Under the pieces are notes generated by a model. That model was not told the origin of the DNA and ran no database searches. It was given only the letters and a program-made list of their open reading frames with translations. A stretch of DNA of 64,000 nucleotides, from IMG/VR virus record IMGVR_UViG_3300037137_001673, positions 1 through 64,000 of that record; one strand, 5' to 3'. This DNA is from a virus. A program made the position numbers and the translations under genes. Below are positions 3,932-40,581 of the stretch, piece by piece; positions within the stretch are counted from its first letter, which is position 1, and the number at the start of each line of letters is the position of its first letter.

Positions 3932-5482
3932 ATGTATATAGATAAAGAAACAAGGATTCAACAGGAAAAAGATTTAGTCAATAGGTGGGAATGGCTCACT
4001 GATGGTGTTGATGACTATGAACAAAAGTTGAATACTTCTATTATTCTTGAAAATTCATATGACACAATGATTTCTGAGGGTCAAGTTACTGATGGTTGGC
4101 TAGAGTCAACAATTCTTAATGAAGATCTTCTTACCGAAGCTCCAACTATTAGTACGAGCTCTGGTTCAAATCTAATTCCAAAGGTTTTGTTTCCAATTAT
4201 TAGGCGTGTATATCCATCACTTATAGCAAATAAACTTGTTTCAGTACAACCAATTCAGGCTAGAACAGGTGTTATTTACTACATGATTTATACATTTACT
4301 AATACTAAGGGTGAAATAACAGCTGCTGATGAATATACTGGTGTAGGACAACAGGGTCTTCCTGCTTATGCCTCTTGGTATTCTGCTGAAAAACTTGGAC
4401 CATATACTGGAACAATAAGTACAACTGTTGGAGATTCAACTCACATTGCTACAGCTTCTGCTGCTACTTTCTTTGCTTATACCGCTGATACGGTAACTTT
4501 AAAGAGAATAGAAGTTTATAATACTAACCTTGGTTCAGCTTTTACTACAGCTACATGTTCTCTTGTCCAGAACGGACAAATTCAGGTTTGGTCAAACACC
4601 AACCTTGTTGGGAAAAATGTTTACTATGATATTGCTGGAAATATAGTATTGCGAAGATGCGCAGATTCAACTTCTGCTACAGCCTCTGTTCCTTGGAGAC
4701 CTGGACAATCAGTTGTTGCTTATATAGTATACAATCAAGAATCTAGTGTTAAAATTCCTGAAATGGAATTCAGCATTGGTTCAGATACAGTAGATACTAC
4801 TGAGCGTAAATTAAAGATCAGATGGACAAAGGAAGCCGAACAAGACATGAAGGCTTATCACAAGATTGATGTAGAAAGCGAACTTGTGAAAATGGCCTCT
4901 ATGGAAATGAATTATGAAATTGACCGTGAAATTATTCAGTTCACAGGCGACCAAGTTGTATCCGATCTATCCGTTGTCCATGACTGGACAGCAGATTCTC
5001 CTAATACAGGAAATAACTCAGCTGGTAACTATCTTGATAGACACCGAGCATTGACTCAAAAAATTTATCAAGTATCAGCAAAAATCGCACAGTATAACCG
5101 TTTGGGACCTGCTTCTTGGGCAGTTGTATCACCACAGGTTGCTGCACTTCTATCAATGCTACCTGATTTCAAGGGAGAAATAGCTGGTGGAACATTCGCA
5201 GTGTTTGAGGCTGGACAACTTGGAAGTGGTTTGAAGATTTTTGTAGACCCTAACAGATTTGGTACAGTTGCTAATGAAATCTTACTTGGATATAAGAATT
5301 CTAACACAACTTACGGAGCTGGAGTTGTATATGCACCATATACTAACTGGATTTCAGGACTTGTAACTGATCCTAATAGCTTTAACTCTGTCCGTGGATT
5401 CTTCACAAGGTACGCCTTAAAGAAGGTTCCTCGTGGTCAGTGGTTCTACGGAAAAGTAAGTCTCTTAAATTATGGAATTTAA
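3932..5482 (+). CDS. gp23: Major capsid protein (T4 gp23-like) with Ser/Thr-rich insertion
   Basis: PIIRRVYPSLIANKLVSVQP, RKLKIRWTKEAEQD, EIDREII, YAPY, TRYA; LLTE/A candidate gp21 cleavage site. Confidence 0.96.
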   Translation: MYIDKETRIQQEKDLVNRWEWLTDGVDDYEQKLNTSIILENSYDTMISEGQVTDGWLESTILNEDLLTEAPTISTSSGSNLIPKVLFPIIRRVYPSLIANKLVSVQPIQARTGVIYYMIYTFTNTKGEITAADEYTGVGQQGLPAYASWYSAEKLGPYTGTISTTVGDSTHIATASAATFFAYTADTVTLKRIEVYNTNLGSAFTTATCSLVQNGQIQVWSNTNLVGKNVYYDIAGNIVLRRCADSTSATASVPWRPGQSVVAYIVYNQESSVKIPEMEFSIGSDTVDTTERKLKIRWTKEAEQDMKAYHKIDVESELVKMASMEMNYEIDREIIQFTGDQVVSDLSVVHDWTADSPNTGNNSAGNYLDRHRALTQKIYQVSAKIAQYNRLGPASWAVVSPQVAALLSMLPDFKGEIAGGTFAVFEAGQLGSGLKIFVDPNRFGTVANEILLGYKNSNTTYGAGVVYAPYTNWISGLVTDPNSFNSVRGFFTRYALKKVPRGQWFYGKVSLLNYGI

Positions 5483-5497
5483 TTACGGAGTTTAGTT

Positions 5498-5532
5498 AAA
5501 AAAAATAGCCCGCAGAAATGCGGGCTTTTTTT
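5498..5532. terminator. Bidirectional intrinsic terminator
   Basis: A-run, AGCCCGCA-GAAA-TGCGGGCT, T-run between convergent genes. Confidence 0.9.
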
Positions 5533-6019
5533 AGTAAATAGGTTTGTTCTTTTCTTTGTTTTCTTTATTTTTTTCGTGATGAAGACCATAATGACAATTA
5601 GGGCAGAGAAGATCGCATTTTTCTATTTCTTCTTTTAAGTGTTCTATACTAACTCCCAAATTAGCTACATTTCCTATATCAAATTTTTTGTTAGTTTCAT
5701 CTCTATGATGAAAATGTAATATTTGAGGCATTTTATTATAACCACAAATAGAACAACTTTTTCCTTCTTTAAAGCTTTCTCTTATTCTTGTTAGCTCTTC
5801 ATATCTTTCTTTTCTTTGTGCCATTGCTTCTTTAATATGTGCTCTATACCATCTTTTACATTTTAATTTATATTTTTCTGGGTTGTCAATTTCCCATTTT
5901 CTAGCATGAGCACGATTGCATTCTTTACATATTGTATCATATCCAAGATGCATCTTTTTGTGCTTAGTAAATTCTTCCAGTTCTTTTTCTTGTTTACAAA
6001 CTCTACAAATTCTTTTCAT
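5531..6019 (-). CDS. HNH homing endonuclease with Zn fingers
   Basis: CxxC motifs, CSICGY, LHFHHRD, LLCPNCH. Confidence 0.85.
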   Translation of the reverse strand: MKRICRVCKQEKELEEFTKHKKMHLGYDTICKECNRAHARKWEIDNPEKYKLKCKRWYRAHIKEAMAQRKERYEELTRIRESFKEGKSCSICGYNKMPQILHFHHRDETNKKFDIGNVANLGVSIEHLKEEIEKCDLLCPNCHYGLHHEKNKENKEKNKPIY

Positions 6020-6087
6020 TTCATACTCCGTAATTTATTTTAAACTACGGATTGAATTTTGTCAATAAAAAAAGCCCCGAAGAGCTT

Positions 6088-38615: not shown

Positions 38616-38617
38616 AT

Positions 38618-38803
38618 ATGAGTATGCAGTATAAAATTAGTAATTTAACATATCAAAGTATAAGAGTTTTCATTGAAAACAAGGAGTATATAATTCCTGG
38701 AAGGAATGATGTGATAGAAAATTTTATTACAGTGGAAGCAATTAATGAAGATGTTAAAAATCTAGCCACAAAAGGTCTATTAAAGTATAAACAACTAAAA
38801 TAG
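38618..38803 (+). CDS. Small hypothetical protein
   Basis: Co-oriented, before sheath. Confidence 0.5.
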   Translation: MSMQYKISNLTYQSIRVFIENKEYIIPGRNDVIENFITVEAINEDVKNLATKGLLKYKQLK

Positions 38804-38919
38804 TTCCTACCTATAATTCTACGAAGACAAGGCGGTTTTTGTGTCACCATGTTTTTGTCAATAAATGCCTTTTTCTCCAATGTAAAGATAAAGAAGTATT
38901 TTAAATAGGAGGAAATGAT

Positions 38920-40581
38920 ATGGCAAAAAGCCCTTCAATAACAATTTTTGAGCAGGATAAATCATCCTATACAGTAACTTCAGCACAGACTATTCTAGCA
39001 CTGGTTGGATATGCTACAAAAGGTATCATAAATACAGTAAAGTCAATAGCTTCAAAAACTGATTTCTTAAAAGCTTATGGAAATCCATCAACTACTTCCC
39101 CTTGGGGTTCTCTAACTGCTCTAAGAGGTTTCAACCAAACAGGTCAAGTTTTATTTGTTAGAGTTGGAAATTTAGCTGCTGGTGATTCTTCTACTTGGCT
39201 TTCTTATGCCGAGAGGGTAATAAGAGGATATAAATTTACTAACTCAGCTGATTCAATTAAAATTTTATTTCAAGCAAAAGAATATGGTTCAGCTTTAAAT
39301 GGTTCTTATGTTACTTTTACTCAACGAAGTAATCCTATTAATGGTGATAGTATTTATGATCTTAAATATTATTATGGTGGAAATTTACAAGAGACTTATT
39401 CTGCCATTAGTTTTAAAATTGGAGATTCTAGATTTTTCCCAACACTAATAAATGCTCTTCCTGAAAATGGTGGTTCTAACTGGCTTTCAATCCAATATAA
39501 AGTCTGGAGTGGTGACTCAAGAGTTAGAGCAGTACCCGCTTCTACAACTGGAACAGTTACTACTTATTATTTGGGGCAATCTTCTGGATATGGTGATTCA
39601 AATATTGCTCAATCTTGGAGAGGTGATAGTTGGCAAGCAGCAAGACCTGGAATGACAACTTGGTATACTTTTAGAACTGGTAAAGATGGAATTCTTCTAA
39701 ATTCTGGAGATACATTGTTTACTAATCAATTAGCTACATCTGCAGCTTTAGCAAATCAAGAAATGTGGGACTATCATATTCTTGCTTGCCCTGACAATGG
39801 AAATTCTGCAGTAGCAGATGCTGGTATTGCTCTAGCTGAATATAGAAAAGATTTCTTATTTTTGGTAGATCCTCCTTTTGGAAAGACAACAACTAATGTT
39901 ACTGCTTGGCATAATGGAACTGGTTCTCAAGGTAGAACTACCGTACTTAATAGTTCTTATGCTGCTACTTGGTGGCCTTGGCTTAAAGACTATAATCCGA
40001 TAGCTGGACAATATGTGTGGTCTCCTCCTTCTACTTTCATAGCTGAAAAATTACTTGAAGTAGATAAGAATTATGGACCTTGGTATGCACCAGCTGGTGA
40101 TATAAGGGGAAAAATTCTAGCTTACGATTATGAGACTTCACCTTCTTTAAGTGACAGAGAAGTGCTTTATGGTGATTTAAATGCCGTTAACCCAATAGTA
40201 AATTTTGCAGTAAAAGGTCTAGAAGTTTATGGACAGAAGACATTATTACGAGCAACTACTGCTCTTAATAGACTTAATGTTAGAAGAATGGTAATCTATG
40301 TTAAGAAGTTAATTAAGAAGGCAATGGATGGAATTGTATTTGAGCCACATAATGCTGACAGTTGGGCAAGGGCTAGAACGATTATTAACAGCATACTTGA
40401 ACCTGTAAGACAAGCAAATGGACTAGCAGACTACAAAGTAACTATTGATGATAATACTAATACTCCTGATTTAATAGCTCAAAGTATTATGAAAGGAATT
40501 ATACAACTTGTTCCAGTTGGAACAATTGAAATCATAGAATTGACTATGCAAATTAAAGCAGCGGGATCATCAATTTCATAA
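38920..40581 (+). CDS. gp18: Contractile tail sheath protein
   Basis: SP...E-x-D-x-S N-terminus, WPW, PWYAPAG, AVNPI, GQKTL, RLNVRR, IEII; GGAGG SD. Confidence 0.95.
   Translation: MAKSPSITIFEQDKSSYTVTSAQTILALVGYATKGIINTVKSIASKTDFLKAYGNPSTTSPWGSLTALRGFNQTGQVLFVRVGNLAAGDSSTWLSYAERVIRGYKFTNSADSIKILFQAKEYGSALNGSYVTFTQRSNPINGDSIYDLKYYYGGNLQETYSAISFKIGDSRFFPTLINALPENGGSNWLSIQYKVWSGDSRVRAVPASTTGTVTTYYLGQSSGYGDSNIAQSWRGDSWQAARPGMTTWYTFRTGKDGILLNSGDTLFTNQLATSAALANQEMWDYHILACPDNGNSAVADAGIALAEYRKDFLFLVDPPFGKTTTNVTAWHNGTGSQGRTTVLNSSYAATWWPWLKDYNPIAGQYVWSPPSTFIAEKLLEVDKNYGPWYAPAGDIRGKILAYDYETSPSLSDREVLYGDLNAVNPIVNFAVKGLEVYGQKTLLRATTALNRLNVRRMVIYVKKLIKKAMDGIVFEPHNADSWARARTIINSILEPVRQANGLADYKVTIDDNTNTPDLIAQSIMKGIIQLVPVGTIEIIELTMQIKAAGSSIS

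Follow-up and report, generated by a model that had tools for sequence, protein, structure and literature searches.

The 64,000-nucleotide stretch analyzed here (the window) covers positions 1 to 64,000 of the IMG/VR virus contig IMGVR_UViG_3300037137_001673, which is 75,970 bp long and derives from an uncultured phage. Within its T4-type structural module, nine proteins contain far more copies of the tripeptide [GA]-D-[ST] (Gly or Ala, followed by Asp, followed by Ser or Thr) than are expected by chance, with 41 sites in 3,155 amino acids (aa) compared to 5.5 expected. These nine, called the outer set below, are the major capsid protein, a gp13-like neck protein, the tail sheath, and six smaller proteins that are named by the first nucleotide of their genes (16720, 22727, 23484, 25062, 27938, and 28778). 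The excess is strong, specific for particular residues, under selection at the protein level, spread over several unrelated protein families, and conserved within, and restricted to, one phage lineage. We tentatively favor the view that the motif is a recognition site for a trans-acting reader, probably an enzyme that modifies the Ser or Thr.

The contig is approximately 38% complete, and the guanine-plus-cytosine (GC) content of the window is approximately 30%. The structural module encodes capsid, neck, sheath, and protease proteins; the capsid, sheath, and neck proteins are homologous to T4 gp23, gp18, and gp13, the prohead protease was identified by its match to PF03420, and a gp15-like protein gave a weak match only. 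The closest GenBank phage matches of the sheath and the capsid protein were 23 to 34% identical, and no close cultured relative was found.

Enrichment of the motif in the outer set

The motif was first noticed in an initial annotation made from the letters of the window alone, which counted it by hand and gave approximately 41 sites in approximately 3,150 aa against about 5 expected. All nine of its counts were exact (Table 1), and the excess persisted after correction for composition and in comparison with the other open reading frames (ORFs). Whole-protein shuffles led to an expectation of 5.55 +/- 2.3 sites, approximately 7 times lower than the number seen, and shuffles within 20-aa blocks gave 5.96 (z of approximately 15), with a maximum of 16 in 5,000 shuffles. 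When only one member of each paralogue pair was kept, there were 35 sites compared to 4.9 expected. The nine proteins hold 172 Asp residues, 62 of them preceded by Gly or Ala and 57 followed by Ser or Thr, and with these numbers held fixed the two groups overlapped at 41 positions rather than the 20.5 expected (P = 8e-12). All 8,000 tripeptides were then scanned across the structural module, with the repeat protein excluded and one member retained per paralogue pair. GDS ranked second (17 compared to 2.6 expected, in 7 proteins), and the sole tripeptide above it was a Cys/Trp tripeptide that occurs once; GDT and ADS were also raised, and ADT was not. Approximately 40 control loci had an average ratio near 1, and two near-complete sister genomes contained 59 sites versus 61.6 expected and 39 versus 42.2 expected. 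These results demonstrate that the expectation is well calibrated.

One could suspect that the excess is an artifact produced by composition, by paralogy, by an inserted domain common to the proteins, or by a DNA signal, as Gly, Ala, Ser, and Thr are abundant in the segments carrying the motif, the GC content of these segments exceeds that of the genome, and two paralogue pairs are present among the nine proteins. Local composition was rejected by the block shuffles. An all-against-all BLAST comparison detected the two paralogue pairs and no other cross-similarity, which rejects a shared domain, and the excess stood when paralogues were removed and when dipeptide counts were fixed. A DNA-level signal was rejected as well: all 41 same-strand occurrences of the corresponding degenerate 9-mer were in frame 0, with none in frames 1 and 2 and two on the opposite strand, the motif codons are mixed, drawing on each of the four Gly codons and on both families of Ser codons, and close relatives differ by synonymous changes within them. 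The signal resides in the protein, not in the DNA, and the probability that it is an artifact of any of these kinds is negligible.

Residue specificity

Within [GA]-X-[ST], Asp was enriched 7.4-fold, Glu was never found (2.5 expected), and Asn was found once (4.7 expected). The residues clearly raised before D-[ST] were only Gly (11-fold) and Ala (3.4-fold), and after [GA]-D both Ser (11.5-fold) and Thr (4-fold) were enriched; positions beyond the tripeptide showed no clear preference. When the sheaths of 32 clade members were aligned, the motif was retained at nine columns, with Gly favored over Ala, Asp nearly invariant, and Ser and Thr interchanging. Neither Glu nor Asn occurs in any of the 32 sequences at the eight of these columns that lie in the outer part of the sheath, and the columns flanking the motif are variable and contain many indels. 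By these counts and alignments, the specificity is that of a sequon.

T4-like virions assemble in the cytoplasm, and this bears on the analogy drawn by the initial annotation with the D-(S/T)-x sequon of general O-glycosylation in Bacteroidota. That sequon, D-(S/T)-(A/I/L/V/M/T) (PMC12871550, PMC8550257), is said to be the only known bacterial O-glycosylation sequon (PMC12871550). It is like the phage motif in consisting of three residues, in having Asp directly before Ser or Thr, in not tolerating Glu, and in somewhat preferring Ser (PMC12871550), and both motifs are enriched across many unrelated proteins of one lineage. The analogy fails on topology and on the flanking positions. In Bacteroidota, glycan transfer is periplasmic and acts on non-cytoplasmic proteins only (PMC12871550), whereas the phage proteins are cytoplasmic virion parts whose N-termini, where read by eye, have no hydrophobic stretch like that of a signal peptide. 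The Bacteroidota sequon has a hydrophobic or small third residue and requires none before the Asp; conversely, the phage motif has a strong requirement for Gly or Ala before the Asp, which is foreign to D-(S/T)-x, and the residue after the Ser or Thr is not significantly constrained (L, I, V, T, A, S, or M at 26 of 41 sites by hand count, binomial p = 0.06 against a background of roughly 50% assumed from composition). We consider it very improbable that a host system of the Bacteroidota type reads these sites.

Location of the sites

Eight of the nine sheath sites lie at aa 88 to 263, between the conserved N- and C-terminal core, and the ninth is at aa 479. The 516-aa capsid protein has sites at aa 167, 185, and 244, all within a segment that could not be aligned to T4 gp23, and at aa 354, outside that segment. 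All six sites of the gp13-like protein are in its N-terminal extension (aa 124 to 539), before the homology region that starts near aa 557, and the remaining sites are in the small neck-region proteins. Going by the published T4 gp18 and gp23 structures, the sheath segment from aa 88 to 263 and the capsid segment from aa 167 to 244 presumably face outward, so that the sites probably sit on outward-facing domains. The AlphaFold2 (AF2) model of the sheath had a predicted local distance difference test (pLDDT) score of 81 and matched T4 gp18 chains in Foldseek (E of 1e-25); the 16720 protein had weak Foldseek matches to neck chains of Bas63 and Sf14, which are accessory chains of phage connectors.

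The initial annotation had called the sequon virion-wide, which is an overstatement. Zero or chance-level numbers of sites were found in the portal, protease, scaffold, gp14/gp15-like, and terminase proteins and in the enzymes, and the contig's remaining ORFs (the nonstructural ones together with portal, protease, scaffold, and gp14/gp15-like) contained 3 sites compared to 5.9 expected. A 2,249-aa repeat protein, a giant fiber or scaffold, is not enriched. Two GC-rich cassettes together contain 1 site versus 4.1 expected, in agreement with the earlier count of approximately 1 and consistent with the earlier view that they are recent imports. The five cassette ORFs have GC contents of 0.41 to 0.48, and three of them match right-handed beta-helix, pectate-lyase-like, or DUF5123 Pfam families, one of them weakly. 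In the first cassette, ORFs 18397 and 21138 have beta-helix-type matches (that of 18397 weak and below the cutoff), and 19852 has none. From these matches, we read the beta-helix and pectate-lyase-like proteins as probable tailspikes. They lie at 18397-22706 and 25529-27196 on the plus strand and also have short linker repeats in common with the repeat protein.

In two AF2 models, 12 of 13 sites lie in the last residues of a loop, such that the Ser or Thr either begins the following strand or helix or directly adjoins its first residue, compared to a background of 40 to 45% for such loop-to-strand or loop-to-helix entry positions (P = 0.004 and 0.04 for the two models). This placement is what would be expected if the motif acted in cis as a loop cap or cation site that terminates a surface loop and initiates the strand or helix following it, with nothing reading or modifying it. 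The Asp side chain would provide the cap, together with the Ser or Thr hydroxyl and possibly a bound cation, and the device would have been adopted repeatedly to stabilize exposed domains. Asx-turns, N-cap motifs, and the Asp-box beta-hairpin are short Asp motifs of this sort that recur at loop/strand or loop/helix junctions of unrelated folds. Several sites also appear to have sharpened residues that already resembled the motif: sister phages have GET, GDP, or TDN at such positions, P-D-S is the counterpart of the motif at sheath aa 479, and T4 gp23 aligns TTVGDI with the TTVGDS found at capsid aa 163 to 169, which suggests that the Gly-Asp of this first capsid site is ancestral and that the Ser alone is new. 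Counting against a cap is the depletion of Asn and the lack of Glu described above, as ordinary Asx-turns and N-cap motifs accept Asn and occur across a fold family, whereas the phage motif excludes both residues and belongs to one phage lineage only. In addition, a single Asp makes a poor cation site.

Distribution among related phages

Comparison with related phages indicates that the motif excess is a trait of a lineage rather than a property of the folds; relatives whose sheaths are 51 to 94% identical show it in the sheath, capsid, and gp13-like proteins and in the 16720 and 27938 families. Among the 120 sheath homologues listed, those of 534 to 578 aa (51 to 92% identity) contained 6 to 15 sites compared to approximately 1.2 expected, and a truncated sheath of 434 aa contained 11; the exceptions in the same length range were a 542-aa sheath with 1 site, a 561-aa sheath with none, and a distant 564-aa sheath with 7. 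The longer sheaths in this list (606 to 928 aa, 42 to 57% identical) had from 0 to 7 sites, near the 1 to 3 expected. All the listed sheaths outside the motif-rich set had 5 sites or fewer except for a single one with 7, and at the aligned motif positions sister sheaths have NS, TDN, ND, GK, and the like. Capsid proteins had 3 to 5 sites in two clades, one of which includes that of the window, and 0 to 1 in most others; those on the same contig as a motif-poor sheath had 0 to 1. For the gp13-like protein, the orthologues of motif-rich phages had 6, 7, 12, and 15 sites, compared to 0 to 2 in eleven other orthologues, most of approximately 810 aa. The 16720 family had 4, 5, and 7 sites in motif-rich phages and none in four sister orthologues, which have GDP, GET, or AEP where the motif-rich lineage has GDT or ADS. 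In the 27938 family, a 62% identical relative shares all four positions and the orthologue at locus L062 (46% identical by tblastn, 47% by BLASTP) has 5 sites, and 149 other representatives (27 to 42% identity) had 71 sites compared to 68.9 expected. Altogether, orthologues of the outer set in the motif-rich relatives, whose records are 10 to 21% complete, contained 173 sites compared to 27.5 expected. No alternative tripeptide was detected in a sister genome, where the highest z was 4.9 over 15,000 aa.

The motif was thus gained jointly in five protein families (sheath, capsid, gp13-like, 16720, and 27938) and is not equally common in distant homologues; with no shared domain found by BLAST beyond the paralogues, this bears out the initial annotation's proposal of convergent gain in unrelated folds. 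Since sister phages have other residues (GET, GDP, TDN, and NS) at homologous positions, the folds do not need the motif. Within the lineage, some sites are stable and others turn over. The nine sheath columns are constant over approximately 50% sequence divergence, and single lineages add sites of their own. Approximately three of the six gp13-like columns of the window are common to the orthologues bearing 12 to 15 sites, and the capsid sites move within the nonaligning segment among clade members. In trees, the motif-rich sheaths and capsids fell into two or three groups within polytomies.

These distributions bear on the loop cap in both directions. The nine fixed sheath positions suit it, and so does the failure to find a reader gene (see below). 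Conversely, the sister orthologues and the 149 representatives of the 27938 family manage without the motif, sites turn over between sublineages, and no structural precedent is known for a simultaneous gain in five unrelated families that is limited to outer parts. A purely structural role in cis is a serious possibility that we judge, on balance, to be somewhat unlikely.

The sheath genes differ in another respect. Two aligned motif-poor sister sheaths (L002:10001-12277 and L003:9986-11941) have an extra insertion of approximately 100 to 200 aa, which falls between residues ~104 and 110 of the window sheath, and sheaths of 880 to 930 aa among the homologues listed suggest yet larger insertions. 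The motif-rich sheaths do not have the insertion and are, therefore, the short sheath form. In one motif-rich relative (record G004, L085:1211-8996, minus strand), the neck genes are followed by three large proteins of 1,151, 628, and 576 aa that have no Pfam match and contain 10, 13, and 16 motif sites, respectively, compared to approximately 2 expected for each.

A proposed trans-acting reader and the search for its gene

Four features, namely the joint gain in five families, the intolerance of Asn and Glu, the confinement to outer parts, and site turnover, are best explained by a trans-acting reader of the motif. We propose that one T4-like phage lineage would have gained, and then kept, the motif on the outward-facing parts of the capsid, neck, and sheath and on the small neck-region domains. 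The likeliest reader would be a trans-acting factor, and its most plausible kind an enzyme that modifies the Ser or Thr hydroxyl beside the Asp, either by O-glycosylation or by addition of another O-linked group. The gene for the reader would be carried either by the host or by the ~60% of the phage genome that the contig lacks. That a candidate enzyme of this type covalently modifies the capsid, neck, and sheath surfaces at Gly/Ala-Asp-Ser/Thr in the cytoplasm, throughout the lineage, is a possibility that we hold with reserve. Such a modified coat may take the place of the extra outer sheath domain of the sister phages. With respect to the surface sequon for a glycan or other posttranslational coat that the initial annotation proposed, the motif does behave like a sequon or other recognized tag on outer domains, which makes the sequon reading plausible, and the specific proposal of a glycan is not supported.

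Several observations weigh against a reader of this kind. The most exposed parts of the virion, the tailspikes and the giant fiber, do not carry the motif, many sites are positionally fixed, and these fixed sites together with the 12 of 13 modeled sites at strand or helix entry fit a structural role too. No phage-encoded glycosylation machinery came to light: Pfam, PHROGs, or NCBIfam searches of nearly all ORFs of >140 aa of the 76-kb contig revealed no glycosyltransferase, sugar-nucleotide enzyme, or protein kinase, and the screened ORFs of four related records likewise included neither a glycosyltransferase nor a sugar-nucleotide enzyme. PF00535 had no match in five motif-rich records, and 53 ORFs of the motif-rich records included no glycosyltransferase or protein kinase by Pfam. 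A comparison for genes that occur in the motif-rich records but not in the two sister genomes yielded no enzyme-like gene; those with that distribution were small ORFs, homing endonucleases, an RNA-ligase-like protein, and divergent head-core proteins. Finally, the other ORFs of the motif-rich records do not avoid the motif (49 sites compared to 38.8 expected).

Integrin-type VWA domains bind L/I-D-S/T loops, and the motif could instead be a docking site for a protein partner, such as a decoration or assembly factor, through the metal ion site of a VWA domain. The structural module includes a VWA-like and AAA+ gene pair (8519-11604, minus strand), and the motif would present an acidic loop that is exposed, preceded by a small residue, and followed by a hydroxyl. 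However, the VWA-like/MoxR pair occurs in motif-poor sisters at similar identity and so does not covary with the motif, and one partner for five folds is unlikely. Docking of this kind is improbable.

Individual genes were also considered as the reader and rejected. The MoxR/VWA pair, the M20 peptidase, and the conserved genes downstream of the sheath gene are present in motif-rich and motif-poor phages alike; the neighbors found in both sets include the MoxR-type ATPase, the DUF2201 protein, the M20 peptidase, and three unknown proteins. The B12-binding radical SAM enzyme encoded in the tRNA region is missing from the two sister genomes but was also unseen on the contigs of the motif-rich relatives.

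Genes of the window

The positions of the genes discussed are given in Table 1. Between the capsid and neck genes, the DUF2201 and MoxR-type genes are kept in motif-rich and motif-poor relatives, and the 404-aa AAA ATPase matched motif-poor loci only. Five homing endonucleases that are paralogues of one another and a single HNH endonuclease are dispersed over the structural module and the tRNA region; GIY-YIG and NUMOD3 domains were detected by Pfam in three of the five, and the other two were assigned by PHROG homing-endonuclease matches and 40 to 47% paralogy. Downstream of the sheath gene is a conserved minus-strand block (40731-48593) that encodes unknown proteins of 528, 412, and 496 aa and two enzymes, an M20-family peptidase (44397-45560) and an RNA-ligase-family protein (47081-48232), and most of its genes are also present in motif-poor relatives. 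ARAGORN predicted 22 tRNA genes on the minus strand (49397-63501), interspersed with small ORFs and homing endonucleases. Among NCBIfam families, the radical SAM enzyme of this region is best matched by KedN5, whose members are methylcobalamin-dependent C-methyltransferases. The closest homologues of the enzyme come from cellular organisms (Omnitrophica, Elusimicrobia, Brocadia, and others) and are no more than 55% identical to it.

Table 1. Positions, strands, and [GA]-D-[ST] sites of the features discussed in the text
Feature	Position	Strand	Motif sites	Evidence or remarks
Major capsid protein, T4 gp23 family	3932..5482	+	4	PF07068, E 9.5e-57
AAA ATPase (404 aa), DUF2201 putative metallopeptidase/VWA-like protein (527 aa), MoxR-type AAA_5 ATPase (500 aa)	7330-11604	-		Between capsid and neck genes
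gp13-like neck protein with ~550-aa N-terminal extension	12796..15246	+	6	phrog_211 (head-tail adaptor), E 8.5e-14, aa 557-808
16720, beta-sandwich protein, 154 aa	16720..17184	+	4	AF2 pLDDT 76
GC-rich cassette 1, three ORFs	18397..22706	+	1 (2.5 expected)	PF13229, PF17161
22727, 234 aa, large phage-only family, function unknown	22727..23431	+	4	Atlas cluster, 4424 members, 93% viral
23484, 180 aa, paralogue of 22727 (26% identity)	23484..24026	+	2	Sequence comparison
25062, 149 aa, phrog_644 (function unknown)	25062..25511	+	4	PHROGs match
GC-rich cassette 2	25529..27908	+	0	25529 pectate-lyase-like and beta-helix (PF12708, PF13229); 27231 no Pfam match
27938, 275 aa, large phage-only family	27938..28765	+	4	Motif count
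28778, 278 aa, paralogue of 27938 (68% identical)	28778..29614	+	4, positions matching those of 27938	Sequence comparison
Repeat fiber or scaffold protein, 2249 aa	29920..36669	+	2 (3.3 expected)	Not enriched
Tail sheath, T4 gp18-like, 553 aa	38920..40581	+	9	phrog_23, E 1.5e-58
B12-binding radical SAM enzyme, 648 aa	52983-54929	-		Within tRNA region; NCBIfam KedN5 family, E 6e-75, below curated cutoff
Homing/HNH endonucleases	11646-12341, 17230-17982, 24104-24868, 38130-38615, 57412-58056, 51156-51821	-, +, +, +, -, -		

Comparison with known systems and significance

Modified virion proteins are known from other viruses. In mycobacteriophages, virion glycosylation (Freeman et al. 2023, Cell Host Microbe, as cited in PMC12619734; also PMC11256854) provides a precedent for a posttranslational coat placed on capsid and tail proteins during infection. 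In those phages, the glycans are reported to be at the C-termini of capsid and tail-tube subunits, glycosyltransferases are phage-encoded, and no tripeptide sequon is defined. In contrast, the sites in the phage described here are internal (capsid aa 167 to 354 of 516 and sheath aa 88 to 479 of 553), and no transferase gene was found among the screened ORFs of its 38%-complete contig. No tail-tube gene was found in the window. The host enzyme MepM methylates the mycobacteriophage tail protein Gp34 at an ELS motif (PMC13445384), which is likewise a three-residue motif of a virion protein with an acidic residue and Ser, and a host-encoded enzyme such as this would account for the failure to find a phage gene. 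The MepM case involves one tail protein, one site class, and an actinobacterial host, compared to the dozens of sites in at least five families found here. The major capsid protein of the chlorovirus PBCV-1 has atypical N-glycosylation sequons, NTXT and NIPG (PMC9614988). These are also short noncanonical motifs in capsid proteins, and their mechanism is thought to be unlike known ones; PBCV-1 differs in being a eukaryotic virus in which Asn is modified and the glycans have been shown chemically. The known precedents share neither this motif nor its breadth of targets.

Short sequons allow protein modification to be predicted from sequence, and we know of no O-glycosylation sequon that has been defined for phage particles. 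If the modification is real, no O-modification sequon, as far as we are aware, would have been defined for tailed-phage virions before [GA]-D-[ST]. If the motif acts instead as a loop cap or ion site, many unrelated folds of a single lineage would have taken up one structural device in parallel, which is rare. The approach, a search for a lineage-specific tripeptide excess in exterior virion proteins, is transferable to other phage groups. Should an enzyme read the motif, the sites would show where the particle surface of a widespread environmental phage group undergoes a chemistry that has so far gone unseen; this chemistry would affect particle stability, adsorption, and recognition, and the enzyme would be a portable tagging tool.

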